Of a DNA stretch of 64,000 bases, positions 9,260 through 55,873 are shown in pieces. The number at the start of each line of letters is the position of its first letter. Position 1 is the stretch's first letter. Origin of the DNA: an uncultured Candidatus Saccharibacteria bacterium (lineage in GTDB: Bacteria; Patescibacteriota; Minisyncoccia; Phycocordibacterales; PALSA-1337); the NCBI GenBank assembly GCA_964543075.1, contig CAZIVT010000002.1, positions 3,089 to 67,088 on the forward strand, written 5' to 3'. The notes beneath the pieces are model-generated. The model did no database searches. It was not told where the DNA came from and was given only the letters and a program-made list of their open reading frames with translations. The translations under genes and the position numbers were made by a program.

Positions 9260-9296
9260 ATCTTTACAATTTTGCTACGATGTACTAAACTGGTCG

Positions 9297-9316: not shown

Positions 9317-9327
9317 ATTCAACAAAT

Positions 9328-10047
9328 ATGTCATTTGGTTCATATCTAAAAAATCAAAGAGAATCGAAAAGTTGGACTATAAAAGAGCTGGCCGAACGGC
9401 TCGGCTTTTCCTCGAGCTACATCAGCCAGTTGGAGAATGGGACACGCAATCCATCCCATAAACAGCTGGCCGTTCTCGCCAAGGCCTATCAGCTTCCTGA
9501 AGAGGAACTGAAGAAGCATTGGACCGAGGGGAAGATCCAAAAGGTCAGCATGGAGGGCAATTATAAATTCAACATCAGCGATGTTGGCGAGAAGCGTGTT
9601 CACGAGGCCGCAAGCAAATTAGAGCAAGGGCTTGAGGAACTACGGAATACCATCTCTGGCGATGATGCATACATCAAGACGCCAGTGATTGATGCACTCT
9701 CAGCCGATGACCTCGGCACTCGTTTGAAGGAAGCGAAGGAGTTTTTCTTTCTCCCTAAAAACAGCGTGCCGGCCGGACATCGTATGTTTGGCTTTCGGGT
9801 GGATGGTTTATCACTACCCGATGCCGGCATTCTCACCGGGGACTTCACCATCCTCGATGCAGATGCTGATCCAAAGAGTGGCGATATTGTGGTGGTCGCC
9901 ACTCCGGATGGACTGGTGATGACTTATTACCATGAGCGAGGTGACTACCTTGAGCTCAGGCCGGAGACGGAGGGCTTCAAAAAGACCTACCATCTCAAGG
10001 AGAGCAAGATAGTGGGTCGGCTCGTCTACCACGTCAAGAAGTATTAA
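9328..10047 (+). CDS. CI-like repressor: XRE HTH fused to an S24/LexA-like C-terminal domain
   Basis: N-terminal HTH WTIKELAERLGFSSSYISQLENGTRNPS. The C-terminus VDGLSLPDAGILTGDFTILDADADPKSGDIVVV...LELRPE...IVGRLVY resembles the LexA/CI autopeptidase fold. The catalytic dyad was not verified. Confidence 0.8.
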   Translation: MSFGSYLKNQRESKSWTIKELAERLGFSSSYISQLENGTRNPSHKQLAVLAKAYQLPEEELKKHWTEGKIQKVSMEGNYKFNISDVGEKRVHEAASKLEQGLEELRNTISGDDAYIKTPVIDALSADDLGTRLKEAKEFFFLPKNSVPAGHRMFGFRVDGLSLPDAGILTGDFTILDADADPKSGDIVVVATPDGLVMTYYHERGDYLELRPETEGFKKTYHLKESKIVGRLVYHVKKY

Positions 10048-10133: not shown

Positions 10134-11717
10134 ATGAACTACTTAATCTACGGCCGTGTCTCTACATCTCGTCAGGCCGAACGAGAATTGAGTATTCCAG
10201 CGCAGGTGAAAGCATGCCAGAAGTACGGCATGGATCACGGTTGGAATCTCGCACCTGATGGCATCTATGAGGAAAAGGGTGAATCAGCTCGAACAGTTGA
10301 ACGTCCACAGCTTCAGAAAATGCTTCATCGGGCAAAGACTGATAACAAGGTCGATGCGATATTGATGCACAAACTTGATCGTATGTGTCGCAACGTTGCG
10401 GACTACGCCGCAATAAAGATGATGCTCAAAAAGCACGACGTCCGGTTGATCTCGGTGGTCGAGCAATTCGATGAGTCTTTCTCCGGAGAGCTTGTCGAGA
10501 ACATCATGTCCTCAATTGCTCAATGGACGTCCCAGAACATCAGCTGGGAGGTCAGGAAAGGCCTTAAAGAGGCCGTAGAGCGTGGCAGGTTCCCCGGATA
10601 CGCTCCAATCGGCTATATGAACGATCGGAAGACCAAATCCCTGATCGTGGATACTGTTCGAGCACCATATGTGAAGCTGGGGTTTGAGCTTTACGCGACA
10701 GGCAAATTTTCTTACTACACGCTCGGTGACGAATTGGCAAAACGAGGTCTCAAGAGCAAGGCTGGCAAACGTGTCTCAAAGAAAGGCGTTGAGCGGATGC
10801 TTCAAAATTCGATCTACTACGGTCTTATAAAAACACGATCGGCCACCAATCAGGCAAACTTTCCGTCACTCATTACCAAGAAGCTCTTTGATGATGTGCA
10901 GGAAATCATCGCACAGCACAATCACTACGCCGATCGGTCTCGCAAGCACACCTTTCCGCTTACCGGCTTCATGCGATGCGGTTACTGTGGCTCGATGTTG
11001 AGTGGTCAGGTGAAAAAGGGTCACTTGTACTATAACTGCTCTCACCGACGTGACGCCAAATGTCCGGAAAGAAAGTACACTCGATCTGAGCTTATTGAGG
11101 AGCAGGTCGTAGCGTATCTCTCACGAGTCGAGTTGCCACCTAAGTTCAAGACGGTCTTGGATGCGTACTTCCAGCACTTCGCAAAAGAGCGTATGGATCA
11201 GGAGGAAAACGAACGCAAGAGCATTAAGCACGACCTGATCAGGGTGCAACAGCAGATCCGTAATATTGTCGTGGATCGCTCAAAACGCATCATTGACGCA
11301 GAGGTTTTTATAAAGATTCAGGACGAGCTTCTCAAGGAGAAAGAGATGTATCAGGATCGCTTGGCCGAGCTCGAGGGTAAGTCAGACAAATTCGTGCAGA
11401 AATTCAATGAGCTTCTCGACTTCACGGATCACGCCGATGAGGTGTATCAAAAGAGTGGCACTAGTCAGAAGCGAACGGTACTAAAGCTTTGCATTGAGGG
11501 ATTCACAGTCAGAAATCAAAAACTGACACCGATATGGACGCCAGTTTTTGATGTTCTTATGGACTTACAATGGTCCAAGTTCGATCCCCCAAAAGTCGGC
11601 GGCAAGGGTTCTAAAACCGCCTCAAAAACCCTTGCCGTACCTAAGGTTCTAACTTGGACATCTGGCGGAGACGGAGGGATTCGAACCCTCGAGGCCCTTG
11701 CGAGCCTAACACCTTAG
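10134..11717 (+). CDS. Large serine recombinase (integrase)
   Basis: Resolvase N-domain LIYGRVSTSRQ with the catalytic Ser, a recombinase domain, the zinc ribbon CGYCGSML...YYNCSHRRDAKCPE and a coiled-coil. The last 56 nt of the ORF overlap tRNA-Ser on the other strand, so the true C-terminus is uncertain. Confidence 0.9.
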   Translation: MNYLIYGRVSTSRQAERELSIPAQVKACQKYGMDHGWNLAPDGIYEEKGESARTVERPQLQKMLHRAKTDNKVDAILMHKLDRMCRNVADYAAIKMMLKKHDVRLISVVEQFDESFSGELVENIMSSIAQWTSQNISWEVRKGLKEAVERGRFPGYAPIGYMNDRKTKSLIVDTVRAPYVKLGFELYATGKFSYYTLGDELAKRGLKSKAGKRVSKKGVERMLQNSIYYGLIKTRSATNQANFPSLITKKLFDDVQEIIAQHNHYADRSRKHTFPLTGFMRCGYCGSMLSGQVKKGHLYYNCSHRRDAKCPERKYTRSELIEEQVVAYLSRVELPPKFKTVLDAYFQHFAKERMDQEENERKSIKHDLIRVQQQIRNIVVDRSKRIIDAEVFIKIQDELLKEKEMYQDRLAELEGKSDKFVQKFNELLDFTDHADEVYQKSGTSQKRTVLKLCIEGFTVRNQKLTPIWTPVFDVLMDLQWSKFDPPKVGGKGSKTASKTLAVPKVLTWTSGGDGGIRTLEALASLTP

Positions 11718-11752
11718 CACGGTGCCGCTTTCGACCACTCAGCCACGTCTCC
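11662..11752 (-). tRNA. tRNA-Ser (GCT anticodon), CCA encoded
   Basis: Manual fold of the reverse complement: acceptor GGAGACG/CGTCTCC, anticodon arm GCACC-GTGCTAA-GGTGT, long variable arm, T arm GAGGG-TTCGAAT-CCCTC, then GCCA. Confidence 0.9.
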
Positions 11753-11992
11753 ATGTAATATTTTCTTAAAGGCAGTGCCACCTTTGTAGCTTTTGACCTT
11801 CTTCTCGAGCATACGAGCCTCTTGTTCAGTGTCGGTCTCACAGTAGCATACCAGTTTCCAAGGACCATTCAACTTGGTAAAAGCACCGCCGGTGCCGCTG
11901 TTGTGCGAGACCAGTCTCTCACTCATGTTTATGGTAGAGCCGACATAATGTTTCCCATTCTTTAGGCTCTTGAGTATATAAACATACGCCAT
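11714..11992 (-). CDS. GIY-YIG nuclease family protein (YhbQ/COG2827-like)
   Basis: MAYVYILKSLKNGKHYVGSTINMSERLVSHNSG...PWKLVCYCETDTEQEARMLEKKVKSYKG is a canonical GIY-YIG pattern. The ORF has no stop of its own, and its last 13 codons are tRNA-Ser sequence with the TAA in the anticodon loop. Confidence 0.8.
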   Translation of the reverse strand: MAYVYILKSLKNGKHYVGSTINMSERLVSHNSGTGGAFTKLNGPWKLVCYCETDTEQEARMLEKKVKSYKGGTAFKKILHGDVAEWSKAAPC

Positions 11993-12061
11993 TCACTTTC
12001 GACCATCCCGCCTTTGGCGGGATAAACTCAGCCACGACCCGCCTTGGCGGGTCACGTCTCC
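11993..12061 (-). pseudogene. Decayed copy of the tRNA-Ser 5' portion (nt 1-26) interrupted by two mini-hairpin insertions
   Basis: The reverse complement reads GGAGACG[TGACCCGCCAAGGCGGGTCG]TGGCTGAG[TTTATCCCGCCAAAGGCGGGA]TGGTCGAAAG. With the brackets removed it equals the first 25-26 nt of the intact tRNA-Ser. Confidence 0.65.
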
Positions 12062-12144
12062 ATCGGTGCGCCGAAGCTCGAAAAGCGTAGGCGACCAGTC
12101 GCCAAGCCATTCTTGCACAAAAGAGGGGAGTAATCAAAGTCATC

Positions 12145-14835: not shown

Positions 14836-14922
14836 TTCAATAGTCAAATAGTACCTAGTCCAATAGTCTCTGCTACCAAATCCAGGGGCAGGGACTATTC
14901 GACTATTGAACTATTTGACTGC
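14836..14922. repeat. Intergenic word-repeat hairpin element H1 (CTACC..GCAG core family)
   Basis: Left arm GTTCAATAGTCAAATAGT... pairs with right arm ...GACTATTGAACTATTTGACT. Central part is TCTCTGCTACCAAATCCAGGGGCAGGG. It lies between the convergent tyrS and comFC genes. Confidence 0.65.
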
Positions 14923-18199: not shown

Positions 18200-18532
18200 A
18201 TGAAGAACAAAACCTCATCAAAGAAGACCCTCGTGAGCTCGGTTATCATCATCGTCGCTGTGGCGATCGCGTATTTCTTCTATATGGGCAACAAGGCCCC
18301 CTCCGGACAGTCTCTACTCGAGACGCAGGTGACGCCTGAGGCCAACGCGGCCAGCTCGCGCATACTGGCTCTGCTCAATCAGATCAGATCGCTCAAGATA
18401 GACACGGAGATATTCGATGATCCGGTATATCAGACGCTCATCGATTATTCGGTCGCCATACCAGATGTCCCTGTCGGCAGGCTCAATCCGTTCGCTCCTA
18501 TACCAGGAGTGCCGATAGAAGGGTCAAATTGA
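18200..18532 (+). CDS. Small membrane-anchored protein of the pilus operon
   Basis: Start moved to MKNKTSSKKTLVSSVIIIVAVAIAYFF. No recognisable family. Confidence 0.4.
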   Translation: MKNKTSSKKTLVSSVIIIVAVAIAYFFYMGNKAPSGQSLLETQVTPEANAASSRILALLNQIRSLKIDTEIFDDPVYQTLIDYSVAIPDVPVGRLNPFAPIPGVPIEGSN

Positions 18533-18616
18533 ACGTTGAAAATTGAACGTTGAAGATTAATCCCTCGGGACTAATAGCCGGAATTTTCAATTTTCAATTT
18601 TCAATTTTCAATGCAA
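18527..18616. repeat. Intergenic word-repeat hairpin element H8
   Basis: Left arm is (AATTGAACGTTGAA)x2 and right arm is (ATTTTCA)x4. They are partly complementary (TTGAAAATTGAA versus TTCAATTTTCAA). Confidence 0.6.
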
Positions 18617-20810: not shown

Positions 20811-20880
20811 TGGTACCTAGTTAGTTCTCGCTACTAGATGCAGAAACTATGTAACTAGGTGCTATGCAACTAAGTAACTA
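20811..20880. repeat. Intergenic word-repeat hairpin element H2 (TCGCTACTAGAT..GCAGAAACTATGTAACT family)
   Basis: The core at 20828..20873 is about 90 percent identical by eye to 33190..33240. Arms GTACCTAGTTAG / CTAACTAGGTGC pair. Confidence 0.7.
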
Positions 20881-20886
20881 CCGTAT

Positions 20887-21945
20887 ATGGACTATAAACA
20901 AGAAATCCAAGAACTCGTCGACCTGGTCTTCAAGGAAGGCGCATCAGACCTGCATCTCTCGACTGGCCGCACGCCGATCATCCGCGTCTCCAGCAATCTG
21001 ATACCGCTCGTCAAGAAACCCACGCTATCTGACGCAGATATGAAGGGCTTCCTCAAGGTATTCCTCAACGAAGAGAGCATCGAGATCTTCCACAGAGAGA
21101 AAGATGTCGACTTTTCATACGGCCTAGACCAGGCGCGTTTCCGTGGCAATGCCTACTATCGTCAAGGCGCTATCTCCATCGCGCTTCGTCTCATCCCCAA
21201 GGCCATACGGACGCTTTCGGAGCTCAACCTGCCTCCTATCCTCGAGACATTCACGAGGAAGCCCCAGGGATTCTTCCTCGTGGTAGGACCGATCGGCCAA
21301 GGCAAGACCACTACGCTGGCTACGCTGGTCGAGATCATCAATCAGACGAGGTCAGAGCACATCATGACCATCGAGGATCCCATCGAGTATCTTTTTGATT
21401 CCAAGAAGTCCATCATCGATCAGCGCGAGGTGCGTTTCGATACGCCTGATTTCCAGACAGCTCTGGTGGCCATGTTCCGTCAGGATATCGATGTCTGTAT
21501 GGTGGGCGAGATGCGAGACAATACCACTGTCGCTACCGCCGTGACCGCCGCTGAGACAGGTCACCTGATCTTCTCGACACTGCATACCAACAATGCCGCC
21601 CAGACGATCAACCGCATCATCGACTCGTTCCCGCCGAGCCAGCAGGATCAGATCCGTATCCAGCTGGCAGGATCCCTGTCAGGCATATTCTCTCAGCGCC
21701 TCATCCCGCGCATCTCTGGCGGACAGATCCCGGCGTATGAGCTTCTCATCAACAACACCGCCGTCGCCAACCTGATTCGCGAGAAGCGCATCCATGAGAT
21801 CAATACCGTCATCGAGACGAGCTCACAGGAGGGGATGATCGACATGAACCGCTCGCTCGCCGAGCTCGCGCGATCCGGAGAGATCACCGTCGAGAACGCG
21901 TATCTCAATTCGCTCAATCCCAAGACGCTCGAACGCATGATGTGA
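20887..21945 (+). CDS. pilT: Twitching-motility retraction ATPase PilT
   Basis: Walker A GPIGQGKTT, and IFSTLHTNNAAQTINRIID is typical of PilT. 352 aa. Confidence 0.92.
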   Translation: MDYKQEIQELVDLVFKEGASDLHLSTGRTPIIRVSSNLIPLVKKPTLSDADMKGFLKVFLNEESIEIFHREKDVDFSYGLDQARFRGNAYYRQGAISIALRLIPKAIRTLSELNLPPILETFTRKPQGFFLVVGPIGQGKTTTLATLVEIINQTRSEHIMTIEDPIEYLFDSKKSIIDQREVRFDTPDFQTALVAMFRQDIDVCMVGEMRDNTTVATAVTAAETGHLIFSTLHTNNAAQTINRIIDSFPPSQQDQIRIQLAGSLSGIFSQRLIPRISGGQIPAYELLINNTAVANLIREKRIHEINTVIETSSQEGMIDMNRSLAELARSGEITVENAYLNSLNPKTLERMM

Positions 21946-23281: not shown

Positions 23282-23325
23282 AACACGCAGGGTAGACCTG
23301 CGTACGCAGGTCTACCCTGCGTGTT
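23282..23325. repeat. REP element copy 1 (44-bp perfect palindrome)
   Basis: AACACGCAGGGTAGACCTGCGTACGCAGGTCTACCCTGCGTGTT, 4 nt after the pilC stop. Confidence 0.9.
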
Positions 23326-24044: not shown

Positions 24045-24082
24045 CCGCAGGGTAGACCTGCGTACGCAGGTCTACCCTGCGG
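24045..24082. repeat. REP element copy 2 (38-bp perfect palindrome)
   Basis: CCGCAGGGTAGACCTGCGTACGCAGGTCTACCCTGCGG. It overlaps the last codons and the stop of the RAYT ORF. Confidence 0.9.
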
Positions 24083-24659
24083 GGACTGCGAGGATTCGAT
24101 AGGTGATGATGCTTGTTTGACTTCGGGACTCCCCCAAGTAGTCCTTGAAACTCGAGTACTCATATGATTTTGAATACTCTATAGCCTCGCCCAAATACTC
24201 CGTTTTGGCAGTTTTCGTCATGTCTGGTTGGTCTATTCCATATGGATTGAGATGAACGTATTGGACCAGATATCGCAGATACTCATCGGAGTCTACATGT
24301 TTTGATCTATACTGGCCTTGGAATATAGTGCCCGAATGGTCGTATTTCTTGTTGTAGTACATGGCATATGAGGTGCAGAGCCTCTGCATGAACTTTTCCA
24401 CCCCTCTTTCTGTCGTCTCGCGCATTCCGATATGAAAATGATTGGGCATGAGGCAGTAGCAGAATATATCCGTGAGCGTATCACGTTCAAACCGAAACAT
24501 ATCTGTCGGCTTTATTGTACGCAGGTCTACCCTGCGGGTGTGGTTATTCATGACGTACAGTAGTTGCAAAAACCTCATATAATCGGATGTGTCATGGAAA
24601 ATAGGCGCTTTGTGAGCACCTCGGTTATATACATGGTAGTGTTCTCCGATGATATGCAT
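24072..24659 (-). CDS. REP-associated tyrosine transposase (RAYT, IS200/IS605 Y1 TnpA-like)
   Basis: YHVYNRG, HUH motif CLMPNHFHI, and catalytic-Tyr region YLRYLVQYVHLNP. It is flanked by REP palindromes. Confidence 0.85.
   Translation of the reverse strand: MHIIGEHYHVYNRGAHKAPIFHDTSDYMRFLQLLYVMNNHTRRVDLRTIKPTDMFRFERDTLTDIFCYCLMPNHFHIGMRETTERGVEKFMQRLCTSYAMYYNKKYDHSGTIFQGQYRSKHVDSDEYLRYLVQYVHLNPYGIDQPDMTKTAKTEYLGEAIEYSKSYEYSSFKDYLGESRSQTSIITYRILAVPAG
24518..24537. repeat. Half REP inside the RAYT coding sequence
   Basis: TACGCAGGTCTACCCTGCGG, translated on the minus strand as TRRVDLRT. Confidence 0.7.
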
Positions 24660-24668: not shown

Positions 24669-24690
24669 TCCGCAGGGTAGACCTGCGTAC
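24669..24690. repeat. Half REP upstream of the RAYT start
   Basis: TCCGCAGGGTAGACCTGCGTAC is the left half only, 10 nt upstream of the RAYT ATG. Confidence 0.75.
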
Positions 24691-24801
24691 AGTACGATAT
24701 CAAAAGCAGATAAAATCCAGATAAAATAAGTATAAAGTTTTACTAAAGTTTTCCCCCTATATCTGATGATTGCTTGTCATACGTCGTGGTATAATTCATT
24801 T

Positions 24802-25347
24802 ATGAATAAAAATTCCCTCCGCAGGGTAGACCTGCGTACGCAGGTCTACCCTGCGGAAAAAGCTTTTACTATCATCGAGCTTCTCGTCGTGATCGCCATC
24901 ATCGCGCTCTTGACCGGTATCATCATGACCAACCTGACTTCCGCGAAGTCTCGTGCCAGGGATGCCAAGAGGATATCGGATATGGGGCAGATCGCTCTGG
25001 CGCTCGAGCTTTTCTATGATAGGTGTGGATCGTATCCTATAGCAGAGGGGTATCTTAGTCTTTCAGAAGACGCCAATGGATATTGCCCTAGTGGTGTGAC
25101 ATTTGAAGATTTTATGTCTGTTATTCCTTCCAATCCAGCTCCATATGATCTACCATATTACTACTATAATGCCCCTAGTGATGAGGTTGATTTCAAGGCA
25201 AAGAAATACCTGCTACGTGTCACCTTAGAAGGGAGCAACTCGGTATTGGATGATGATGTCGATAGTATACCAATAGCGGATTGGCCTGATATAGCCAGTA
25301 ACTTTTGTTCTGATGCCTCGAACGCCTACTGCATAATCGGAAATTAG
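24802..25347 (+). CDS. Type IV pilin-like protein with a REP-encoded leader segment
   Basis: MNKNSLRRVDLRTQVYPAEKA then FTIIELLVVIAIIALL. TATAAT-N6-ATG at 24790-24804. There is no alternative start between the REP and the FTIIE motif. Confidence 0.8.
   Translation: MNKNSLRRVDLRTQVYPAEKAFTIIELLVVIAIIALLTGIIMTNLTSAKSRARDAKRISDMGQIALALELFYDRCGSYPIAEGYLSLSEDANGYCPSGVTFEDFMSVIPSNPAPYDLPYYYYNAPSDEVDFKAKKYLLRVTLEGSNSVLDDDVDSIPIADWPDIASNFCSDASNAYCIIGN
24818..24857. repeat. REP element copy 3 (40-bp perfect palindrome) inside a prepilin leader
   Basis: TCCGCAGGGTAGACCTGCGTACGCAGGTCTACCCTGCGGA. Confidence 0.9.
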
Positions 25348-27488: not shown

Positions 27489-28067
27489 ATGACTATCTTC
27501 AACCACCAATCTTCAACCGTCGATTCCCGCAGGGTAGACCTGCGTACGCAGGTCTACCCTGCGGGGGCGAGTTCCGGCTTTACCATCATCGAGACGTTGG
27601 TGGCGATAACTGTGCTGATGATCGCTATCGCCGGGCCGCTGGTCGTAGCGACCAAGGGTCTCGCCGCGGCGCAGACTTCCAAGAATCAGATGATCGCCAC
27701 CTATCTCGCGCAAGAGACCATGGAGATCGCCAAGAATACCAAAGACAATAACATCGCCTCAGGTGCGGCATGGGATGAGCTGCTCAACGAATGCTCGGAG
27801 AGCTCGCCGTGCGATATGAGCCCGTTCGACGATTATATATTATGCCCGGAATCCCAGTACCAAGGCCAGGGATGCAGGATCTATTTCACTCCGGAGTTCG
27901 GGTATGTCAATTCTGCCACCGGAGATTCGACCCCGTTCTACCGCAAGTTCTATATCGAGCCGATCGGCAGCAGTGAGATATCCGTCAACGTCATGGTCAA
28001 TTGGAGGGAAGGGGCTCTTCCATATCAGGTTCATATTACCAATCAAATGCTCAATACTACCCGATGA
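27489..28067 (+). CDS. Minor pilin / pseudopilin (PilV/GspI-like) with a REP-encoded leader segment
   Basis: MTIFNHQSSTVDSRRVDLRTQVYPAGASSG then FTIIETLVAITVLMIAI. Start moved to the first ATG after the upstream stop. Confidence 0.75.
   Translation: MTIFNHQSSTVDSRRVDLRTQVYPAGASSGFTIIETLVAITVLMIAIAGPLVVATKGLAAAQTSKNQMIATYLAQETMEIAKNTKDNNIASGAAWDELLNECSESSPCDMSPFDDYILCPESQYQGQGCRIYFTPEFGYVNSATGDSTPFYRKFYIEPIGSSEISVNVMVNWREGALPYQVHITNQMLNTTR
27526..27565. repeat. REP element copy 4 (40-bp perfect palindrome) inside a prepilin leader
   Basis: CCCGCAGGGTAGACCTGCGTACGCAGGTCTACCCTGCGGG. Confidence 0.9.
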
Positions 28068-28563: not shown

Positions 28564-28590
28564 GACGCAGGTCTACCCTGCGTACGCAGG
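28564..28590. repeat. Partial/permuted REP
   Basis: ACGCAGGTCTACCCTGCGTACGCAGGT is the right REP half followed by the start of another right half, 6 nt after the pilX-like stop. Confidence 0.7.
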
Positions 28591-28605
28591 TTCTGCTATC
28601 CTTAG

Positions 28606-30879
<2,274 letters not shown>

Positions 30880-31573: not shown

Positions 31574-31609
31574 CGATACGAATACTACGAATAATGCGAA
31601 TAACGACGA

Positions 31610-33163
31610 ATGCCAATAGACTTACAAAATCTGACGATCGTGAAAGCGCATGAAGCGCTCAAGAAGGGCGAATTCACTTCGGTCGAATTGACGCAGGCGT
31701 ATCTGGATCAAATTGCCGCACGCAACGGCGACATCTACGCATATCTGGAGGTCTTCGAAGACGCGATAGATCAGGCCAAGGAGGCGGATAAGAAAATACA
31801 AGGATTGATCTCGCCAACGGCGGGGTTGACCCCGCCTGTGGCGGGGTTGAAAGAAGGAAAGATTGAAAGATTGAAAGATTCGGATACAGCCGCGGATTTC
31901 CCGATGTTGCTGGGCATCCCGTGCGCGATCAAAGATAATATCCTCATCAAGGGCCACATCGCCAGTTCAGCGTCCAAGATATTGGAGCGATATCATGCGA
32001 CCTACGATGCCACGGTCATCCGCAAGCTCAAGGAGGCCGGCGCGGTCTTCCTCGGACGCACCAATATGGACGAATTCGCTATGGGCGGCTCGACCGAGAA
32101 CTCCGCCTATGGTCCGACTAGGAATCCGCACGATCTCGAACGCGTTCCAGGCGGGACCTCGGGAGGATCGGCAGCTGTCGTAGCGGCGGACATGGCATTG
32201 TTTGCGCTCGGCTCGGATACAGGAGGATCGATCAGACAACCTTCGAGCTTTTGTGGTGTGGTAGGGATCAAACCGACATACGGCAATGTATCACGATATG
32301 GTCTGATGGCGGCTGTTTCGTCATTTGACCAGATTGGTCCGATAGTCAAGACGGTCGAAGATGCCGAAATAGTATTTGATGTGATCAAAGGGAAGGATGA
32401 GAAGGATGGAACAAGTCAAAATTCTCCCGCCTCCGCTCCACTCCGCGAAGCTTCGGCGGGCAAGCAATTCCCAATTCCCAATTCCCAATTCCAACACAGG
32501 CAAGATCGATTGCGTATAGGTATTCCGAAACACTTCTTGAAAGGAGATGGCATCGATCCGGCGGTCGTGAAGGCGTTCGAATCTTCGGTGGAAGCGCTTA
32601 AAGCTAAGGGATATGAGGTGATCGATATCGAGTTACCGAATATCTCGTATTCATTACCTGCATATTATATTCTGAACTTTGCGGAAATATCGTCCAACAT
32701 GGCGCGCTATGATGGTATGAGATTCGGTCTCCATGTAGATGGCGCGGACGGCATCGGCGACTATTTCGAGACGCGCAAGGCGGGCTTAGGCAAGGAGGTC
32801 ATCCGCCGCATCTTGCTCGGCACCTATGTACTCTCGTCAGGATACTACGACGCCTATTACAATCGCGCCAATGCCGTGCGCCGGATGATCACCGAGGACT
32901 TCACCAAAGCATTTCAGTCAGTCGACGTCATCGCCACGCCGACCACGCCATCTCCTGCGTTCAAACTCGGCGAGAAGACGAGCGATCCGGTGGCGATGTA
33001 TCTGGAAGATATATTCACCGTGACGGCAAACCTGACGGGCATGCCGGCCATCTCCGTGCCGATGAAGACCGACGGATTGCCCGTAGGCATCCAGTTCACC
33101 GCGCCACAGGGAGGGGAGAGCGCTCTATTTGAGATCGGAAAAGAGACGGAGATAGTCGAGTAG
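31610..33163 (+). CDS. gatA: Glutamyl/aspartyl-tRNA amidotransferase subunit A with two extra in-frame segments
   Basis: Amidase signature GGSSGGSAA-like GGTSGGSAAVVAA, GSDTGGSIRQP and KDNI. Confidence 0.95.
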   Translation: MPIDLQNLTIVKAHEALKKGEFTSVELTQAYLDQIAARNGDIYAYLEVFEDAIDQAKEADKKIQGLISPTAGLTPPVAGLKEGKIERLKDSDTAADFPMLLGIPCAIKDNILIKGHIASSASKILERYHATYDATVIRKLKEAGAVFLGRTNMDEFAMGGSTENSAYGPTRNPHDLERVPGGTSGGSAAVVAADMALFALGSDTGGSIRQPSSFCGVVGIKPTYGNVSRYGLMAAVSSFDQIGPIVKTVEDAEIVFDVIKGKDEKDGTSQNSPASAPLREASAGKQFPIPNSQFQHRQDRLRIGIPKHFLKGDGIDPAVVKAFESSVEALKAKGYEVIDIELPNISYSLPAYYILNFAEISSNMARYDGMRFGLHVDGADGIGDYFETRKAGLGKEVIRRILLGTYVLSSGYYDAYYNRANAVRRMITEDFTKAFQSVDVIATPTTPSPAFKLGEKTSDPVAMYLEDIFTVTANLTGMPAISVPMKTDGLPVGIQFTAPQGGESALFEIGKETEIVE

Positions 33164-33250
33164 TACTTAGCTACTTGGGTACATAGTTTTCGCTACTAGA
33201 TCTAGATGCAGAAACTATGTAACTGGGTACTATGTAACTATGTAACTATT
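33164..33250. repeat. Intergenic word-repeat hairpin element H4 (same family as H2)
   Basis: TCGCTACTAGATCTAGATGCAGAAACTATGTAACTGGGTACTATGTAACTA. It differs from H2 mainly by a CTAGAT duplication. Confidence 0.7.
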
Positions 33251-33267
33251 TTATATAATATACCCAT

Positions 33268-33882
33268 ATGCCTCCTTCGGAGTTCACAGACCCGTCTCCC
33301 CATATATCGATCGGCCCACCACAGGTCGACATCATGTCGTCTCTAGATACGGCGTATCAAGCTTTTCTCGCGTGGTTGCCGGCGCTGACGTCGATCCTCA
33401 AGTCAGCGTTCGGTGTCTTGGTGGGCCTCTCATTCCCGATATCGCTCTTTTTCCTGATCGTCATCATCTACTGCGTGGAACAGCTCAAGTATATCCGTAA
33501 GAGGGAGGAGCTCATATACGACACGCGGACCGAACCCGCGTATCAGGAACAAGAGGGAGGAGATCCAAAGCTCGCGCATCAGTGGTCGAGCGTGATACGG
33601 CACATCGAGTCTCCCAACGAGAACGATTGGAAGCAGGCGATCCTTGAGGCAGATATGATCCTCGGTGACATCCTGACTGCCATGGGCTATAGGGGAGAGA
33701 GCATCGGGGAGAAGCTCAAGCGGGTCAGTCTCGGCGATATGAAGTCTCTCGACGATGCCTGGGAGGCGCACAAAGTCCGCAATGACATCGCGCATCGACC
33801 TGGTTTCTCCATCAACCAGTATGATGCCCGACAGGTCATCGCTCGATACCGCAAGGTCTTCGAGGAGTTCTACTACATTTGA
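33268..33882 (+). CDS. Hypothetical membrane protein
   Basis: 204 aa with two N-terminal TM segments and a soluble helical C-domain. TATAAT-N8-ATG. Confidence 0.5.
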   Translation: MPPSEFTDPSPHISIGPPQVDIMSSLDTAYQAFLAWLPALTSILKSAFGVLVGLSFPISLFFLIVIIYCVEQLKYIRKREELIYDTRTEPAYQEQEGGDPKLAHQWSSVIRHIESPNENDWKQAILEADMILGDILTAMGYRGESIGEKLKRVSLGDMKSLDDAWEAHKVRNDIAHRPGFSINQYDARQVIARYRKVFEEFYYI

Positions 33883-33885
33883 TAC

Positions 33886-33988
33886 AGATATACGAATGCA
33901 TGCAAATCTACGAATAACTACGAATAGCGCAATCGCCATTCGCAGTTATTCGCATCATTCGAATAATTCGTATATTCGTATCGTGCGT
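33886..33988. repeat. Intergenic word-repeat hairpin element H9 (CGAATA-word family)
   Basis: Long imperfect inverted repeat ...CTACGAATAACTACGAATAGCGC AATC GCCATTCGCAGTTATTCGCATC.... A single-arm relative lies at 31574..31609. Confidence 0.6.
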
Positions 33989-34729: not shown

Positions 34730-34833
34730 CAAGAGAAATTCAAAAATTAAATTTATCCCGCCTTGGCGGGACAGGCAAAAATCAAAAGTGAAAGCGCAAC
34801 GACAGATATTTTCACTATCAGTATACCCTGACT

Positions 34834-35727: not shown

Positions 35728-35814
35728 AATTACCCTAATTTCTAATTGATCTAATTTCTAAACAATGACCAATTGTAGGTTACTCAGAAATTAGGCCAAT
35801 TAGGTCAATTCTTG
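35728..35814. repeat. Intergenic word-repeat hairpin element H6 (CTAATT-word family)
   Basis: CTAATTGATCTAATTTCTA pairs with CAGAAATTAGGCCAATTAG. The left arm GAATTACCCTAATTTCTAATT matches the reverse complement of the H5 right arm. Confidence 0.65.
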
Positions 35815-36510: not shown

Positions 36511-36598
36511 AACTCAAAACTCAAAGCTCAAAAGTCAAAAATAGACCAAATCGAAAAATCAGCGTTAGTTTTGCGTTTTGATTTTTGAGCTTTGAGTT
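36511..36598. repeat. Intergenic word-repeat hairpin element H7 (AAACTC/TCAAAA-word family)
   Basis: Left arm AACTCAAAGCTCAAAAGTCAAAA (36518..36540) pairs with right arm GTTTTGATTTTTGAGCTTTGAGTT (36575..36598). Confidence 0.7.
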
Positions 36599-44331: not shown

Positions 44332-47300
44332 ATGAAGCATATATGTATCAGTAGCTCGATTGTGGCACGTCTGACCAGGATATCTACCGGGTTCGTGCTC
44401 ATGCTGGCCATGGTTCTGACCAATATCCCCCTCGGATTCATCGTGACGATCGCGAAGAAATTCGATGACCGCAATGTTGTCGACTTGATGTGGCAGGCCC
44501 AGCGCGACTCGTCGGTCGTGGACTCGTTCGGCGTCGAGCAGGCTCATGCATCGGCAGAGAATACGGTCGATGTCACCATACTGGACGCTACCGACGAGTT
44601 CGGACCCTCTCCATCGGTCGTCTTCACGAGCGACCAAGTGGGATATGTTTTCTACATCGATGCGACTGCGCAGGATCTCGCCTACAGCAAGACCACCAAT
44701 GGCGGCACCAACTGGAGCGCGGCTGTCGTCATCGATACCGCCATCACCGGCTGGACCACCCTCGCCGTCTGGTATGACCAGTGGACGCCAGGAGACACCA
44801 CCGGCACGCGCATCCATATCGCCGCCGCGGACGATGCCGCTGACGACATCTACTACACATATCTCGATACCAACGGCGATACCCTCAAGGGCAGTGTGGT
44901 CGCGGCAGTCCCCGGATCGACTACCTTCACCGAAGCGAGCGATGGTCCCCCGAGCATCACCAAGGGAGCAGGAGGAGCACTCTTCATCTCCGGCAACTTC
45001 ACGAACACCGCCGGTGGCAAAGTCTACAAATCGACCGACGGAGCCGGAAACACATGGTCGGATGCCACGCCGACGAGCTGGAGCACAGTGGCGATCGATC
45101 AGATCCAGCTCTTACCTCTCCTCACCGACAACGACATCATCGCCATCAAGGCCCAGACGGCAGACAACACCATCAGATATCGCATATATGACGAGGTCGG
45201 CGACACCTGGGACGGAGCCTGGTCCGCGAGCATCGCCTCGCTCACCGAGAACACCACCTACGACCAGTGGTTCTCGGCCACCATCAGGAAGTCTACCGGA
45301 GACGTGTACCTCGCCTTCGCCAATCAGACCAACAATGCCGCCAACGATATCGCGTTCTGGAGCTTCGACGAGAGCGCTCGTTCGGGCTTCTCCCAAGGAG
45401 CGGATCTCTTCACCAACGATATCAGCGTGATGATGCCCGCTCCGCTCGTCGACGAGAACACGGGAGACATCTACGTCTCCTACCTCCGCGGCACGCTCAA
45501 CTCCGCCATGAATGTCTACTACAAGAAGTCGACTGATGGGGGCGCGAGTTGGGGCGATGAATCCGCGAAGCTCAACGAATTCGCCGATGACCACAAAGGC
45601 GTGCGTACCAATCTCCTCAGCGGGAGTAGGCTCTACGTCGTCTGGTACAACGACGACCTCAACGACATATATGGAAGTACCATCATGGATGGCGCAGAAG
45701 TGTCGATAGACAACGCCTTGACTGATGGTACCGACGAGTTCGGGCCGTCGCCATCATCGGTATTCATCTCTGATCAAGAAGGCTATGTCTTCTACATCGA
45801 TGCGGGTAACGACCTTGTCTATAGGAAGACCGTCGATGGAGGCAAGAACTGGCTCAATCCGGTGATCGTGAACAATGTCATCACCGGCTGGACCACCCTC
45901 GCCGTCTGGTATGACCAGTGGACGCCAGGAGACACCACCGGCACGCGCATCCATATCGCCGCCGCGGACGATGCCGCTGACGACATCTACTACACATATC
46001 TCGATACCAACGGCGATACCCTCAAGGGCAGTGTGGTCGCGGCAGTCCCCGGATCGACTACCTTCACCGAAGCGAGCGATGGTCCCCCGAGCATCACCAA
46101 GGGAGCAGGAGGAGCACTCTTCATCTCCGGCAACTTCACGAACACCGCCGGTGGCAAAGTCTACAAATCGACCGACGGAGCCGGAAACACATGGTCGGAT
46201 GCCACGCCGACGAGCTGGAGCACAGTGGCGATCGATCAGATCCAGCTCTTACCTCTCCTCACCGACAACGACATCATCGCCATCAAGGCCCAGACGGCAG
46301 ACAACACCATCAGATATCGCATATATGACGAGGTCGGCGACACCTGGGACGGAGCCTGGTCCGCGAGCATCGCCTCGCTCACCGAGAACACCACCTACGA
46401 CCAGTGGTTCTCGGCCACCATCAGGAAGTCTACCGGAGACGTGTACCTCGCCTTCGCCAATCAGACCAACAATGCCGCCAACGATATCGCGTTCTGGAGC
46501 TTCGACGAGAGCGCTCGTTCGGGCTTCTCCCAAGGAGCGGATCTCTTCACCAACGATATCAGCGTGATGATGCCCGCTCCGCTCGTCGACGAGAACACGG
46601 GAGACATCTACGTCTCCTACCTCCGCGGCACGCTCAACTCCGCCATGAACGTCTACTACAAGAAGTCGACTGATGGGGGTGCGAGTTGGGGAAGCGAATC
46701 GGAGAACTTGAACAAGGGCGTCGTCGATGACTTCAAGACTCTACGCGGGAACCTCCTGAGCGAAGATCGTCTCTATGCGGTCTGGTACAACGACGACCTC
46801 AACGACATATATGGAAGTACAGTAAACGACGTCTACGCATGGGAGCAGGCCGCGTATAGATTCTTCAACAGCGCCGCCTCCACCGATGTGGGGTCGGCTT
46901 TGGCGAATCAGGATATTCCGGGAGTCTTGGCGAGCGGCGGAGATACGTTCCGTCTGCGCATGCTTCTGCACAATACGGGACAGGCTCCGATCAATAGTGC
47001 CTCCATGAAGCTTCAGTATGCTGAGAAGTCAGGCACATGCGATACGGCTTTTTCGGGCGAGAGCTATGTCGATGTCACTTCATCGACTGATATAGCCTAT
47101 GATGTGGCCAACTCTCCGGCTGACGGAGATGCTTTGACATCCAACGCCTCAGACCCGACGCTCGGCAACAGTGTCGTCAATCAGACCTATGAAGAAGCCA
47201 ATCCCTTTACCAATACACAGGCCATAGTGCCATCGGGACAGGATGGTAAGTGGGATTTCGCGCTGATCGACAACGGCGCGCCGCCCGGTACGAGCTATTG

Positions 47301-48162
47301 TTTCCGTATCGTCTATACTGATGGCAATCTCATCAATCAGTATAGCGTCATCCCTGAGGTCTCTACCGCCTCCGGAGGCAATTCTCCACCCGTCGCTTCG
47401 GATGTCTCCATCGATTCTGATGCGGCCTCAGTGACGCTCATAGAAAGCACGACCAAGGACGTGGTCTGTGTCGCTACAGTCACTGATACGGATGGGTATA
47501 CAGATATTTCATCGGTCACGGCGGATCTCTTTCGGACATCACAGACTGTCAGTTCCGGACTCGATGACAACGATCACTATCAACTCTCAGGGGATAGTCA
47601 ATGCGTGCCTTCCGGTGGAGCGGGGAACAGTGAGACGTATACATGCACGTTCGCGGTCCAGTACTTCGCCGATGCTACGGATACTGGTTCGCCCAATGCG
47701 GCCGATGATTGGACGTGTCGAGTCATGCCCAGCGATTCAGCAGGAGAAGGGACGAGCGCGAGCGATACGATAGAAGTCGACTCACTGTTCGCATTGGAAG
47801 TCACGGCATCCATCGACTACGGGTCTCTCGATCCTGATAGCGATACGGGCTCGACCAATCAACAGGTGACGGTGACTAACACTGGCAATCGCGATATGGA
47901 TCCGCAGGTATCCGGAGGAGATATGGTTTCCGGCATCAATTCTATAGCCGTAGGACAACAAAAATACGCGTCTGCAGGATTCACCTATACGAGCGGTGGA
48001 ACGACGCTCTCCACGACACCGGCGACGCTCGACCTGGCCCTTCCTCAGCGCACCGCCGCGGTCGTCGACGCGCTCGTGTACTGGGGTATCGGCATACTGG
48101 ATGGGACTCCGGGAGGCGGATATGCCGGAACCAACACATTCACCGCTACGTCAGGTATATAA
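44332..48162 (+). CDS. Giant surface protein: two BNR/Asp-box beta-propeller units plus a C-terminal adhesin-like module
   Basis: Asp-box motifs (SKTTNGGTNWS, YKSTDGAGNTWS, KKSTDGGASWG) repeat in two ~379-aa units. The C-terminal ~300 aa are paralogous to the product of 48295..49209. Confidence 0.8.
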   Translation: MKHICISSSIVARLTRISTGFVLMLAMVLTNIPLGFIVTIAKKFDDRNVVDLMWQAQRDSSVVDSFGVEQAHASAENTVDVTILDATDEFGPSPSVVFTSDQVGYVFYIDATAQDLAYSKTTNGGTNWSAAVVIDTAITGWTTLAVWYDQWTPGDTTGTRIHIAAADDAADDIYYTYLDTNGDTLKGSVVAAVPGSTTFTEASDGPPSITKGAGGALFISGNFTNTAGGKVYKSTDGAGNTWSDATPTSWSTVAIDQIQLLPLLTDNDIIAIKAQTADNTIRYRIYDEVGDTWDGAWSASIASLTENTTYDQWFSATIRKSTGDVYLAFANQTNNAANDIAFWSFDESARSGFSQGADLFTNDISVMMPAPLVDENTGDIYVSYLRGTLNSAMNVYYKKSTDGGASWGDESAKLNEFADDHKGVRTNLLSGSRLYVVWYNDDLNDIYGSTIMDGAEVSIDNALTDGTDEFGPSPSSVFISDQEGYVFYIDAGNDLVYRKTVDGGKNWLNPVIVNNVITGWTTLAVWYDQWTPGDTTGTRIHIAAADDAADDIYYTYLDTNGDTLKGSVVAAVPGSTTFTEASDGPPSITKGAGGALFISGNFTNTAGGKVYKSTDGAGNTWSDATPTSWSTVAIDQIQLLPLLTDNDIIAIKAQTADNTIRYRIYDEVGDTWDGAWSASIASLTENTTYDQWFSATIRKSTGDVYLAFANQTNNAANDIAFWSFDESARSGFSQGADLFTNDISVMMPAPLVDENTGDIYVSYLRGTLNSAMNVYYKKSTDGGASWGSESENLNKGVVDDFKTLRGNLLSEDRLYAVWYNDDLNDIYGSTVNDVYAWEQAAYRFFNSAASTDVGSALANQDIPGVLASGGDTFRLRMLLHNTGQAPINSASMKLQYAEKSGTCDTAFSGESYVDVTSSTDIAYDVANSPADGDALTSNASDPTLGNSVVNQTYEEANPFTNTQAIVPSGQDGKWDFALIDNGAPPGTSYCFRIVYTDGNLINQYSVIPEVSTASGGNSPPVASDVSIDSDAASVTLIESTTKDVVCVATVTDTDGYTDISSVTADLFRTSQTVSSGLDDNDHYQLSGDSQCVPSGGAGNSETYTCTFAVQYFADATDTGSPNAADDWTCRVMPSDSAGEGTSASDTIEVDSLFALEVTASIDYGSLDPDSDTGSTNQQVTVTNTGNRDMDPQVSGGDMVSGINSIAVGQQKYASAGFTYTSGGTTLSTTPATLDLALPQRTAAVVDALVYWGIGILDGTPGGGYAGTNTFTATSGI
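44742..45512 (+). repeat. Internal tandem repeat, copy A (identical core)
   Basis: By eye, base-for-base identical to 45879..46649 (offset 1137 bp = 379 codons). The first mismatch is at 45513 (T versus C). Confidence 0.85.
45879..46649 (+). repeat. Internal tandem repeat, copy B (identical core)
   Basis: See copy A. The flanks of the two units are clearly diverged. Confidence 0.85.
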
Positions 48163-53956: not shown

Positions 53957-53995
53957 GCCTCTTGGAATTTCCGTCATTTGGTGTATACTCCACCC

Positions 53996-55873
53996 ATGCG
54001 ACGGAAGAAGCGCCCGAATGGCCGGAATAGCGTGAAGAAAAGTTCAGCGAAAAGCCATTCGCGGGGCGCTTCAAAGCCCTCTCGTCCGAGACATGCTCAC
54101 AAGTACATCTTCGTCATCGGCGGCGTGATGTCCGGCGTCGGCAAGGGTATCGCCACCTCTTCCATAGGCACGCTGCTCGCCGCCAAGGGCTGGACGGTCA
54201 ATCTGGCCAAGGTCGACCCCTATCTCAATGTCGATGCTGGCACCATGAATCCCACTGAGCATGGGGAAGTCTTCGTGCTCGATAGCGGCCTGGAGACCGA
54301 TCAGGACATGGGGAACTATGAGCGCTTCCTCAACCGCGACCTCACGGCCGATGACTATATCACGAGCGGCATGGTCTATCGCCACGTCATCGAGAAGGAG
54401 CGCGCGCTCGGCTACGGCGGCAAGTGCGTCGAGGCCATCCCGCATATCCGCGACGAGATCGTGCGACGCTTCGAGCATAGCGCCAAGGTCAACAAGTCCG
54501 ACATCTCGATCATCGAGATCGGCGGCACCGTCGGCGACTATCAGAACATCATGTTCATCGAAGCGGCTCGTGTGCTCAAGATCCGCCATCCGCAGGATGT
54601 CATCTTCATCATGGTGTCGTATCTGCCGGTGCCGGGCGCGCTCGGCGAGATGAAGACGAGGCCGACCCAGAACGCCGTGCACCAGCTGGCCTCATACGGA
54701 GTGACCGCCGATATCATCATCGCGCGCGCCAGCATCCCGCTCGACGAGCGCCGCAAGGAGAAGATCGCTACCGCTTGCAACTTGCCGGCCACACGGGTGG
54801 TTTCTGCTCCGGATATCAGGAGCATCTATGACGTCCCGGGCAATTTCGAGCATGACCGTCTCGCCGATACTGTGCTCGAAGCGCTCCATGTGCCCGCGGG
54901 CGAGCGATCGGGTCCGCTCATCGATGACCCACTCATCTCCATGAAGTCGTGGAAGAAGATGGCCGCCGGCGTCGGCCGACCGCTCGATGAGGGCGAGCGT
55001 CCGCTCAATATCGCTATCGTCGGCAAATATTTCAATACGGGGGATTTCGTCCTCACGGATGCATATTTATCGGTGCTCGAAGCGATCAAATTCTCTGGTC
55101 ATGAGGTCAAGGTCAAGCCGATCATACATACGATCAATGCGAGAGACTTCGAAGAGAAAACTCAAAACTCAAAACTCAAAAGTCAAAAATCCGGTGCAGA
55201 TTCGGACCCTGGTCTTTTTCCGTATGCCCAACTCGACGAGATGGACGGCGTGATCGTGCCCGGCGGGTTCGGCGAGAGCGGTATCGAGGGCAAGCTCAAC
55301 GTCATCAGGTATTGCCGCGAGAATGGCATCCCGTACTTCGGCCTCTGCTACGGCATGCAGCTCATGACCATCGAGTACGCGCGCAATGTCCTCGGTCTCT
55401 CCGGCGCGCAGACGGCCGAGATCGATCCGGCCGCGCCGCATCTCATCATCGATATCATGCCCGATCAGAAGAAGAAGCTCCAGGACGCCGACTATGGCGG
55501 CTCGATGCGCCTCGGTCTCTATCCGGCCAAATTGCTCAAAGGATCGATCGCTCAAGAGGCTTATTCGCAGTTCGCCGGCAAGCCTCTGCCCAAACCGACG
55601 ACCATGATCAAGGAGCGCCACCGCCATCGCTACGAGGTCAATCCCAAATATGTCGAGCGGCTAGAAAAAGGCGGCCTCGTTTTTTCTGGAAAATCACCCG
55701 ACGGTCGTCTATGCGAGATCGCAGAATTGCCGCGAGATCGACATCCCTTTTTCCTCGGTACGCAGTTCCATCCGGAGTTCCTGGCGCGTCCGCTCCTGCC
55801 GCATCCGCTCTTCACCGAGTTCCTCAGGGCGGCAAAATGGAGGAAAAGATCTCAAATAGAGAAAGGGAATTAA
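53996..55873 (+). CDS. pyrG: CTP synthase with a basic N-terminal extension and one extra in-frame segment
   Basis: KYIFVIGGVMSGVGKG, a GATase domain with GLCYGMQ and HRHRYEVN. Start set at the ATG 6 nt after TATACT. Confidence 0.93.
   Translation: MRRKKRPNGRNSVKKSSAKSHSRGASKPSRPRHAHKYIFVIGGVMSGVGKGIATSSIGTLLAAKGWTVNLAKVDPYLNVDAGTMNPTEHGEVFVLDSGLETDQDMGNYERFLNRDLTADDYITSGMVYRHVIEKERALGYGGKCVEAIPHIRDEIVRRFEHSAKVNKSDISIIEIGGTVGDYQNIMFIEAARVLKIRHPQDVIFIMVSYLPVPGALGEMKTRPTQNAVHQLASYGVTADIIIARASIPLDERRKEKIATACNLPATRVVSAPDIRSIYDVPGNFEHDRLADTVLEALHVPAGERSGPLIDDPLISMKSWKKMAAGVGRPLDEGERPLNIAIVGKYFNTGDFVLTDAYLSVLEAIKFSGHEVKVKPIIHTINARDFEEKTQNSKLKSQKSGADSDPGLFPYAQLDEMDGVIVPGGFGESGIEGKLNVIRYCRENGIPYFGLCYGMQLMTIEYARNVLGLSGAQTAEIDPAAPHLIIDIMPDQKKKLQDADYGGSMRLGLYPAKLLKGSIAQEAYSQFAGKPLPKPTTMIKERHRHRYEVNPKYVERLEKGGLVFSGKSPDGRLCEIAELPRDRHPFFLGTQFHPEFLARPLLPHPLFTEFLRAAKWRKRSQIEKGN

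Follow-up and report, generated by a model that had tools for sequence, protein, structure and literature searches.

In cyanobacteria, small dispersed repeats (SDRs) were reportedly described by Elhai et al. in 2008 as hairpin-capable mobile repeats of 21–27 nt that are often nested in tandem heptamer arrays. According to PMC5861425, the SDRs are confined to the Nostocaceae. Repetitive extragenic palindromic (REP) elements are short (20–40 bp), GC-rich, dispersed stem-loops that sometimes form doublets and sometimes lie inside replication or repair genes; in both these and the REP doublets forming hairpins (REPINs), one palindrome end bears the tetranucleotide GTAG or CGTC (PMC3733652). Rickettsia palindromic elements (RPEs) measure about 105–146 bp and bear a CGTC tag (Ogata et al. 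2000, summarised in PMC3184786 and PMC3733652), and the QMITEs of Coxiella are miniature inverted-repeat transposable elements (MITEs) that land in genes (PMC5896051). Here, we describe an in-frame repetitive segment in gatA, an essential tRNA-amidotransferase gene, of an uncultured Candidatus Saccharibacteria bacterium (assembly GCA_964543075.1), found in a 64,000-nt stretch of contig CAZIVT010000002.1 (hereafter, the window), in which two 21-nt GC-rich hairpin units sit inside an array of 8-nt words. The segment is probably a composite insertion in a permissive surface loop of GatA, consisting of an array grown by slippage and hairpins copied into it, and would be neutral or selfish for its host.

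The insertion and its place in GatA

The gene order of pilin genes, ligA, gatC and gatA is common to the window (52.9% GC) and three related contigs. The full-length GatA has its best sequence match in the Protein Data Bank in Aquifex GatA (3h0l, E 3e-136), its predicted fold resembles the GatA chains of GatCAB structures (target-normalised TM score of about 0.8), and alignment A1, which holds this GatA and 45 relatives of 66–74% identity (46 sequences), is invariant at the columns of K108, S184 and S207. The closest GatA proteins carry the source names Paceibacterota, Parcubacteria or Patescibacteria, and the nearest among 5.8 billion proteins reach about 70–74% identity at most.

The GatA peptide reads EADKKIQG, followed by LISPTAGLTPPVAGLKEGKIERLKDSDTAADF and then PMLLGIPCAIKDN, and the DNA and peptide quoted in a first-pass annotation of this stretch match the open reading frame (ORF) exactly. 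In base order the segment runs CAAG GATTGA, TCTCGCC AAC GGCGGGG TTGA, CCCCGCC TGT GGCGGGG TTGA and finally AAGAAGGAAAGATTGAAAGATTGAAAGATTCGG AT. Each unit is a 17-nt GC hairpin (CCCCGCC-NNN-GGCGGGG, with a 7-bp stem and a 3-nt loop) followed by TTGA, and TTGA is found 5' of unit 1, between the units and 3' of unit 2. The first-pass annotation had described one hairpin with a 6-bp arm and a TGTG loop at 31830..31846, followed by three words. The location and the presence of both components stand, but the stem is 7 bp with a TGT loop, the hairpins are two tandem 21-nt units nested in the array, and only two words are exact (GATTGAAA, 31861–31876). Tandem Repeats Finder reports a period of 21 nt with 2.2 copies at 31805–31850 and a period of 8 nt with 4.2 copies at 31847–31880 (84% matches, consensus TTGAAAGA). 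Without 31809–31850, the flanks merge into five 8-nt units, GGATTGAA AGAAGGAA AGATTGAA AGATTGAA AGATTCGG, and because removal of these 42 nt leaves a continuous array, the hairpins are nested within the word array and not merely ahead of it. The codons at the 3' end of the segment (loop tail in Table 1) are probably native and not inserted, as they resemble the ordinary loop end of the relatives (x-x-DFP). In the sense direction, the gatA frame alone is free of stops across 31802–31900, with frame +1 holding four TGA because of the TTGA words.

An intein, an intron and a bypass element were each considered and rejected. Intervening sequences of these kinds are removed and need neither keep the frame nor be free of stops, and they carry splicing motifs. 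The length of the segment, by contrast, is divisible by 3 and the gatA frame alone reads through it, its 32 residues are too short for an intein, and no Rfam match points to an intron.

From KIQ+1 to DFP there are 30 residues here and 6 in the commonest relatives of A1, or about 24 extra, and the first-pass annotation was right to put this gap at only a few residues in typical GatA. Loop lengths were also taken between regular-expression anchors, measurable in 112 of the 120 closest GatA; the anchored loop of 38 residues is the longest of the 112, and 80 of the proteins have 9 or 14 residues. None of the other 111 measurable proteins holds the segment or a hairpin-type peptide, and this orthologue comparison bears out the proposal of an insertion rather than a lineage-conserved domain. 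The loop connects the helix at residues 52–67 with the strand carrying the KDN-motif lysine K108. This site is a length-variable hot spot, with unrelated insertions of 10–21 residues in three relatives (P0012, P0014 and P0059), and a second hot spot, after DGTT, is more length-variable than the first; there, many relatives carry NSKFKIQNSKF-like peptides that are translated A/T-rich heptamer arrays.

The AlphaFold2 model, built on the 46-sequence alignment, is mediocre (mean pLDDT 69) and places a coil at residues 68–103, ahead of the strand at 104–108, with pLDDT <50 at 71–91; the inserted segment is thus predicted to be a disordered loop. The alternative that the extra 24–32 residues form a lineage-specific functional loop or domain, selected for example for contact with GatB, GatC or tRNA, draws on the intact ORF, the kept frame and a length sufficient for contacts. 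Against it, the low-complexity heptad peptide (LISPTAG/LTPPVAG) is set by the DNA repeats, the region is predicted as low-confidence coil, and all relatives lack it, with the same site empty or occupied by unrelated insertions. A functional loop is largely refuted by these points and must be considered very improbable.

Residues 272–296 of GatA form a second insertion, also with pLDDT <50, encoded at 32440–32492 by GAAGCTTCGGCGGGCAAGC followed by four copies of CAATTCC (array 32465–32492). The end of GAAGCTTCGGCGGGCAAGC resembles the right arm and tail of the hairpin family described below; the translation is EASAGKQFPIPNSQF, and in the relative P0096 this site is occupied by a similar peptide, PASAEASAGR. 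Just 5' of the gatA start, a TACGAATA-type word array (31576–31617) has an 81% inverted copy at 33932–33973; the pair, 2.3 kb apart, brackets gatA and an unannotated ORF at 33268..33882.

Table 1. Positions of the gatA insertion, its host gene, related hairpin copies and the transposase-like gene with its repeats in the window
Feature	Position	Strand	Remarks
gatA, host gene	31610..33163	+	intact ORF, 517 aa, amidase-signature enzyme
First unit of the word array, GGATTGA	31802..31808	+	cut off from the remaining array by both hairpin units
Hairpin unit 1, TCTCGCC-AAC-GGCGGGG + TTGA	31809..31829	+	21 nt, 7 codons ISPTAGL, degenerate
Hairpin unit 2, CCCCGCC-TGT-GGCGGGG + TTGA	31830..31850	+	21 nt, 7 codons TPPVAGL
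Remainder of the word array, (A)AGAAGGAA AGATTGAA AGATTGAA AGATTCGG	31851..31883	+	translated KEGKIERLKDS
Loop tail, DTAADF codons	31884..31900	+	alignment with relatives
ligA insertion	29391..29470	+	AAAACTC words, then hairpins TCCCGCCTTGGCGGGACAGGC and CCCCGCCAAGGCGGGGCAAGC, AAATTTA between
Intergenic copy 3' of tRNA-Thr(cgt)	34736..34779	+	93% identity over 44 nt to ligA 29392-29435
21-nt hairpin unit TCCCGCCTTTGGCGGGATAAA in duplicated tRNA-Ser 5' end	12006..12026	+	delete-and-compare
20-nt hairpin unit, ACCCGCCTTGGCGGGT + CACG	12037..12056	+	same tRNA-Ser remnant; CACG on either side
RAYT-like IS200-type tyrosine transposase gene	24072..24659	-	in pilin gene cluster, 7 kb upstream of gatA
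CGCAGGGTAGACCTGCG-type repeats	23285-23324, 24045-24084, 24519-24537, 24670-24694, 24819-24858, 27527-27566, 28565-28600		

Hairpin copies in the window and in other genomes

The hairpin core recurs in the window far beyond chance. The string CCCCGCC-N2-8-GGCGGGG occurs twice (gatA 31830 and ligA 29440) where 100 shuffles give an expectation of 0.00, and CCGCC-N2-6-GGCGG occurs seven times against 0.40 expected (17-fold), with none of the 100 shuffles reaching seven; six of these seven hairpins have an extended stem. Counted as a family and leaving out 24007, the window holds seven copies: the two of gatA, two in ligA (29412 and 29440), one downstream of tRNA-Thr (34756) and two in a tRNA-Ser remnant (12006 and 12037). 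Four of the seven lie in coding sequence, and in six the stem is immediately preceded, on one strand, by TTNA, as TTGA before both gatA units and as TTTA at 29412, 29440, 34756 and, on the other strand, 12006. In other genomes, about 19 loci have TTCA in this place.

The first-pass annotation had regarded the gatA hairpin as the same kind as those of ligA and the tRNA-Ser remnant, which is confirmed by the identical core. The remnant (11995–12066) is a second copy of the 5' end of tRNA-Ser (gene at 11663–11752), and deletion of TCCCGCCTTTGGCGGGATAAA (21 nt) and ACCCGCCTTGGCGGGTCACG (20 nt) yields a perfect 27-nt match to 11728–11754, such that the hairpins of the remnant are demonstrably discrete insertions. 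In ligA, the units are in tandem with a period of 28 nt, which is 21 nt plus one 7-nt word, and the ligA and tRNA-Thr copies both lie among 7-nt words (AAAACTC/AAATTTA in ligA). As judged from sequence, the deletion test, the identity between the ligA and intergenic copies and the ligA tandem together show that such units can be inserted or copied. In a promoter/terminator scan, the hairpins of ligA and downstream of tRNA-Thr scored as terminator-like, though solely on the minus strand. Relative to LigA of the closest syntenic relative (L001), ligA has three in-frame insertions (29113–29230, 29391–29470 and 30424–30459), with the hairpin-bearing second one absent from L001; L003 and L004 carry other insertions at the same three sites. 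No hairpins of this core were found in the 47 kb of the syntenic relatives L001–L004.

Outside the window, one genome per species was scanned with a degenerate ligA-type pattern, CCCGCCWWGGCGGGRCARGC, which is permissive and matches in many phyla. Among the matches listed, which do not include the genome described here, about 18 loci share a 25-nt element, TTCA-CCCCGCC-WW-GGCGGGG-CAAGC; by their record titles, these are mostly Patescibacteria (Nomurabacteria, Paceibacterota, Saccharibacteria, Magasanikbacteria, Moraniibacteria and Komeilibacteria). This phylum-wide family was ascertained with a pattern that fixes the tail; TTCA was not part of the search pattern. The second ligA copy (TTTACCCCGCCAAGGCGGGGCAAGC) is one base off the 25-nt element, and in-frame copies within long ORFs occur in MurB (L115 and L067), a RecG-like protein (L075), TopA (L109), an MnmA-like protein (L092), an ABC ATPase (L010) and an HflX-like protein (L105). 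The gatA units compare well with this family in stem and length. Unit 2 has exactly the family stem (CCCCGCC/GGCGGGG with a 2–3-nt loop, a first T or last A being allowed), and the gatA period of 21 nt lies within the 20–25 nt of the family units (hairpin plus a 4–5-nt tail), with 21-nt units also present in MurB of L147 and L148 and units of 21 and 20 nt in the tRNA-Ser remnant. Since the gatA units end in TTGA, they would form at most a sister subfamily, with intergenic copies in three metagenome loci (L137, L138 and L146).

These three loci come from a metagenome scan with TTGA-CCCCGCC-N2-4-GGCGGGG-TTGA, which returned 25 loci. Unit 2 of gatA, with its TGT loop, is matched exactly in the low-GC contigs L137 and L138, and the AAC loop of unit 1 is matched at one locus, L146; these matches are suggestive of relatives of the gatA units. 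The units of L137, L138, L142 and L144 are intergenic and closely followed by a promoter-like TTGACA...TATAAT. Terminators commonly have hairpins with this stem, and for that reason the number of hits was not taken as significant.

The clearest series of insertion states is found in MurB. Aligned to the solved MurB of Pseudomonas, the protein of L115 shows a clean, gap-filling insertion of 10 residues (PASPRHGGAS), and in MurB the insertion is unambiguous. The site, after WLIEQCG, was matched by pattern in 102 of the 120 closest MurB: it is empty in 38, holds a 6-residue PANGTS type in 31 and a 7-residue PRQGGAS/PRHGGAS type in 21, and has longer forms (tandem or nested) in the remaining 12. 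At the DNA level the site is empty in L150 (TGTGGT followed directly by TGGAAA) and carries a short 18-nt hairpin in L149, one 21-nt unit (CCACGCCAGGGCGGGGCAAGT) in L148, two tandem 21-nt units in L147, one of them with a compensatory CCCCACC/GGTGGG pair, and in L067 the 25-nt element in the loop of an L149-type hairpin. Across Patescibacteria, the murB states observed (L147–L150, L115 and L067) are empty, 18, 21, 2x21, 30 and 39 nt. The tandem in-frame 21-nt units of L147 make a gatA-like tandem a recurrent state of the family.

The same evidence bears on whether the hairpins are kept as a functional RNA or DNA stem, which might for example make translation pause once the N-terminal helices are made and before the amidase core follows, act in mRNA processing or stability, or be bound by a protein. 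In RNA the two gatA units fold together into one nested, interrupted 19-bp hairpin, with a minimum free energy of -34.8 kcal/mol for 31795–31895 (z -3.3 relative to shuffles). Unit 1 has two changes in its arm, and since both are C>T, G.U pairs are preserved in the sense RNA; the compensatory pair in the MurB tandem and the wide occurrence of MurB-site hairpin insertions would also accord with selection on a stem. However, the stem is conserved in no related GatA, many MurB lineages have decayed stems (PANGTS, PENGTS) as predicted by neutral drift, and two of two G.U-preserving changes have a chance probability of about 0.25. Rfam at its gathering threshold returned only tRNAs and no match in the segment, and the promoter/terminator scan placed no site within the gatA insertion. 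A functional stem therefore seems quite unlikely.

The 25-nt element was also observed in tRNA surroundings. In several Patescibacteria (L064 1123–1190, L095 425–482 and L120 6972–7030), a partial copy of a tRNA 5' end, comprising the acceptor strand and D-arm, precedes the real gene (for tRNA-Val, -Thr or -Ile) by 12–16 nt, and the element occupies exactly the D-loop of the partial copy. No published name was found for the CCCCGCC-loop-GGCGGGG micro-hairpin repeats. No paper containing the hairpin strings or their translations turned up in text searches of the literature, and among the papers listed, none names Patescibacteria or Parcubacteria together with REP, REPIN or the REP-associated tyrosine transposases (RAYTs).

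Origin of the array and of the hairpins

In gatA of the relative L003, the place of the word array is taken by a perfect AAGATTC x5.1 array. The native KIQDSR codons of L003 (AAG ATT CAA GAT TCA AGA) already amount to 2.5 copies of AAGATTC, and these codons plus three heptamer units (21 nt) give the observed KIQDSRFKIQDS. LigA of L003 and the second hot spot of its GatA hold perfect heptamer arrays as well. The window has further in-frame arrays in ligA (AAATCCG x5.3 at 30424–30459, the third insertion) and in pyrG (CTP synthase, 53978..55873), where AAAACTC x4.6 at 55157–55188 accompanies about 14 residues over PyrG of L001. As the L003 array is seeded by its own codons, the gatA array is interpreted as a product of local slippage, and the hairpins are taken to be repeats copied in from elsewhere. 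The repeat insertion proposed by the first-pass annotation is supported, with the refinement that the words look locally grown and not imported. The simplest account of the arrays is slippage in A-rich codons that contain cryptic repeats, with the reading frame as a filter.

Word arrays were also observed outside the genes just named. AAAACTC arrays recur in ligA (29391) and between genes (36511), and many intergenic gaps hold paired arrays of 7–9-nt words, inverted around a spacer (14839–14920, 18526–18612, 33908–33981, 35735–35810 and 36511–36598), which form long AT-rich hairpins and are possibly terminators or processing sites.

It is worth asking whether local processes could also have made the hairpins, through slippage, tandem duplication and quasi-palindrome template switching, with their likeness to other copies a convergence on a simple GC stem. 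The tandem arrangement at a 21-nt period, the local type of the array, the native-codon seed of the L003 array at the same site, the indel hot spot among relatives and a window that has no other TTGA-type copy all fit such an origin. Yet the 7+7-nt arms are identical to those of the second ligA copy and of the phylum-wide element, where the window expectation by chance is 0.00, and hairpins of the same core are over-represented 17-fold. Units of 20–21 nt were demonstrably inserted in the tRNA-Ser remnant, and the syntenic L001–L004 have none, though a general local mutational bias should appear there too. What slippage alone leaves unexplained is the GC hairpins, the arms of which recur identically in dispersed copies; a purely local origin is judged unlikely, if less so than the functional readings. 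An assembly artefact has to be considered as well, since the source is a contig of a metagenome-assembled genome (MAG) and short tandem repeats can be mis-sized by assemblers. The entire feature, however, is <100 nt and below read length, the frame is kept here as in at least five other repeat insertions (ligA, gatA and pyrG), and similar in-frame arrays and hairpins occur in independent assemblies, which makes an artefact the least credible of the alternatives.

The composite origin preferred here can be laid out as a series of steps. Most likely, the 8-nt array of about five AGATTGAA units grew by replication slippage from native A-rich K/I/Q/E codons and would have provided the TTGA at which the hairpin units sit. 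Two units may then have been copied in at TTGA, or one may have been copied in and then duplicated. One candidate for the copying is a hairpin-specific single-strand DNA transposase, for which the flanking TTGA would be a target or cleavage site and not a duplication, and this would explain the head-to-tail units; another is template switching between TTGA microhomologies in replication or repair. The composite would persist without any required function through its whole codons, its lack of stops and the tolerant loop, as a unit of seven codons with a sole open sense frame and a small polar peptide can survive as a disordered loop.

Several observations weigh against this account. The sole tyrosine transposase in the window (24072..24659) has a different hairpin repeat around it, and no enzyme is linked to the hairpin family. 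A second copy of the TTGA-flanked unit was not found in the 64-kb window, and the CAAGC/CAGGC tail by which the commonest subfamily is marked is missing from the gatA units. Chance may account for part of the 25 metagenome matches, with the same stem adjoining the match in L137 as a terminator. The target-site repeats vary among copies, with TTGA or CACG in some and none at 12006. Lastly, there is no close relative with an empty gatA site, and the distant relatives without the segment differ in loop length, so that we infer the age and the stepwise order of the gatA events.

Beyond gatA, we tentatively entertain a broader possibility, one in which less confidence is placed than in the composite origin: that TTNA-tagged GC-hairpin micro-elements of 21–25 nt are spread across the phylum and still copied by an enzyme specific for hairpins of single-stranded DNA. 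Such elements would preferentially land in existing hairpin loops (tRNA D-loops and older copies) and in word arrays containing TTGA or TTCA, and would repeatedly have added 7-residue loops to GatA, LigA, MurB, RecG, TopA and MnmA. If this were true, they would rank with the smallest known mobile elements and would steadily supply these reduced genomes with protein indels. If the composite origin is correct, some hitherto unexplained extra loops in essential proteins of Patescibacteria would be the footprints of tiny repeats, in the form of 7-codon hairpin units and short word arrays, and not adaptations, with consequences for annotation, alignment-based phylogeny and structure prediction in the group. 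The MurB site, with its empty, single, tandem and nested states, would offer a countable series for selfish or slippage-derived DNA turning into protein, and a hairpin-copying activity would be hinted at in organisms usually considered poor in repetitive DNA.

Other features of the window and known systems

The RAYT-like gene matches Pfam Y1_Tnp (PF01797, E 1e-7) and scores 36 bits with NCBIfam REP_Tyr_transpos, where 80 bits is the cut-off. On both sides of the gene, and in part within it, lies CGCAGGGTAGACCTGCG, a GTAG-containing perfect palindrome of 38 nt made of two inverted 17-nt hairpins, and gene and repeats together look like a REPtron with a REPIN family. From these sequence matches, the gene shows that such enzymes exist in this genome, but in the window it is not linked to the CCCGCC hairpins. 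At the position of this gene, L001 has an NYN-domain gene.

The tRNA-Ser region carries further features. Between the decayed 5' copy of tRNA-Ser(gct) and the intact tRNA (11663–12066) lies a small GIY-YIG nuclease ORF (11714..11992, minus strand), the C-terminus of which reads into tRNA-Ser. The same three-part layout occurs at L113 6686–7080 and L054 2556–2958 (a Magasanikbacteria MAG and a MAG labelled Omnitrophota), each tRNA-Ser remnant of this layout carries two GC hairpins, and the arrangement looks like a conserved GIY-YIG cassette targeting tRNA-Ser. A large serine recombinase gene (10134–11717; Resolvase, Recombinase and Zn-ribbon domains) ends inside tRNA-Ser, and HTH/S24 repressor-like genes lie upstream of it (7895–10047), which suggests an integrated element at tRNA-Ser. 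Elsewhere, a 55-nt direct repeat containing AACTATGT words (20834–20888 and 33202–33256, 87% identical) lies directly upstream of the ORF starts at 20887 and 33268 and may be a shared promoter or leader. A 1276-aa ORF (44332..48162) contains a tandem duplication of about 1137 nt at 44584–46820 (75–91% identity).

The gatA units share features with each of the systems introduced at the outset. Like the RPEs, they are palindromic repeats in frame in functional-looking genes of a small-genome bacterium and add a tolerated surface peptide, and the in-frame residence in an otherwise intact gene that marks an RPE is found in the gatA segment. Unlike the RPEs, the gatA units are 21 nt (7 codons) long, lack CGTC at both ends, sit within arrays of short words and are hosted by Patescibacteria. 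The likeness to the REP/REPIN-RAYT systems lies in short, GC-rich, dispersed hairpins and in the presence of a RAYT-like Y1 transposase gene in the window. However, the hairpins here are tagged by TTGA, TTTA or TTCA with GTAG and CGTC absent, their copy number is low, four of the seven copies in the window are in coding sequence, and the RAYT-like gene is flanked by CGCAGGGTAGACCTGCG doublets and not by CCCGCC hairpins.

With the SDRs, the gatA segment shares the nesting of hairpin units in a word array; the host here is a member of the Patescibacteria, and in-frame residence in essential genes is not known to be a main feature of SDRs. The array component resembles coding slippage expansions, in that the 8-nt array of gatA and the 7-nt arrays in gatA and ligA of L003 behave like slippage products that are kept only at net lengths divisible by 3. 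MITEs are likewise non-autonomous repeats that alter proteins upon landing in genes, but they are 70–400 bp long with terminal inverted repeats and target duplications, whereas the units here are single hairpins of 21 nt. In-frame palindromes and intragenic REPs are already known, and set beside them the present units differ in their 7-codon size, their TTNA tag, their host phylum and their frequent residence in essential genes.

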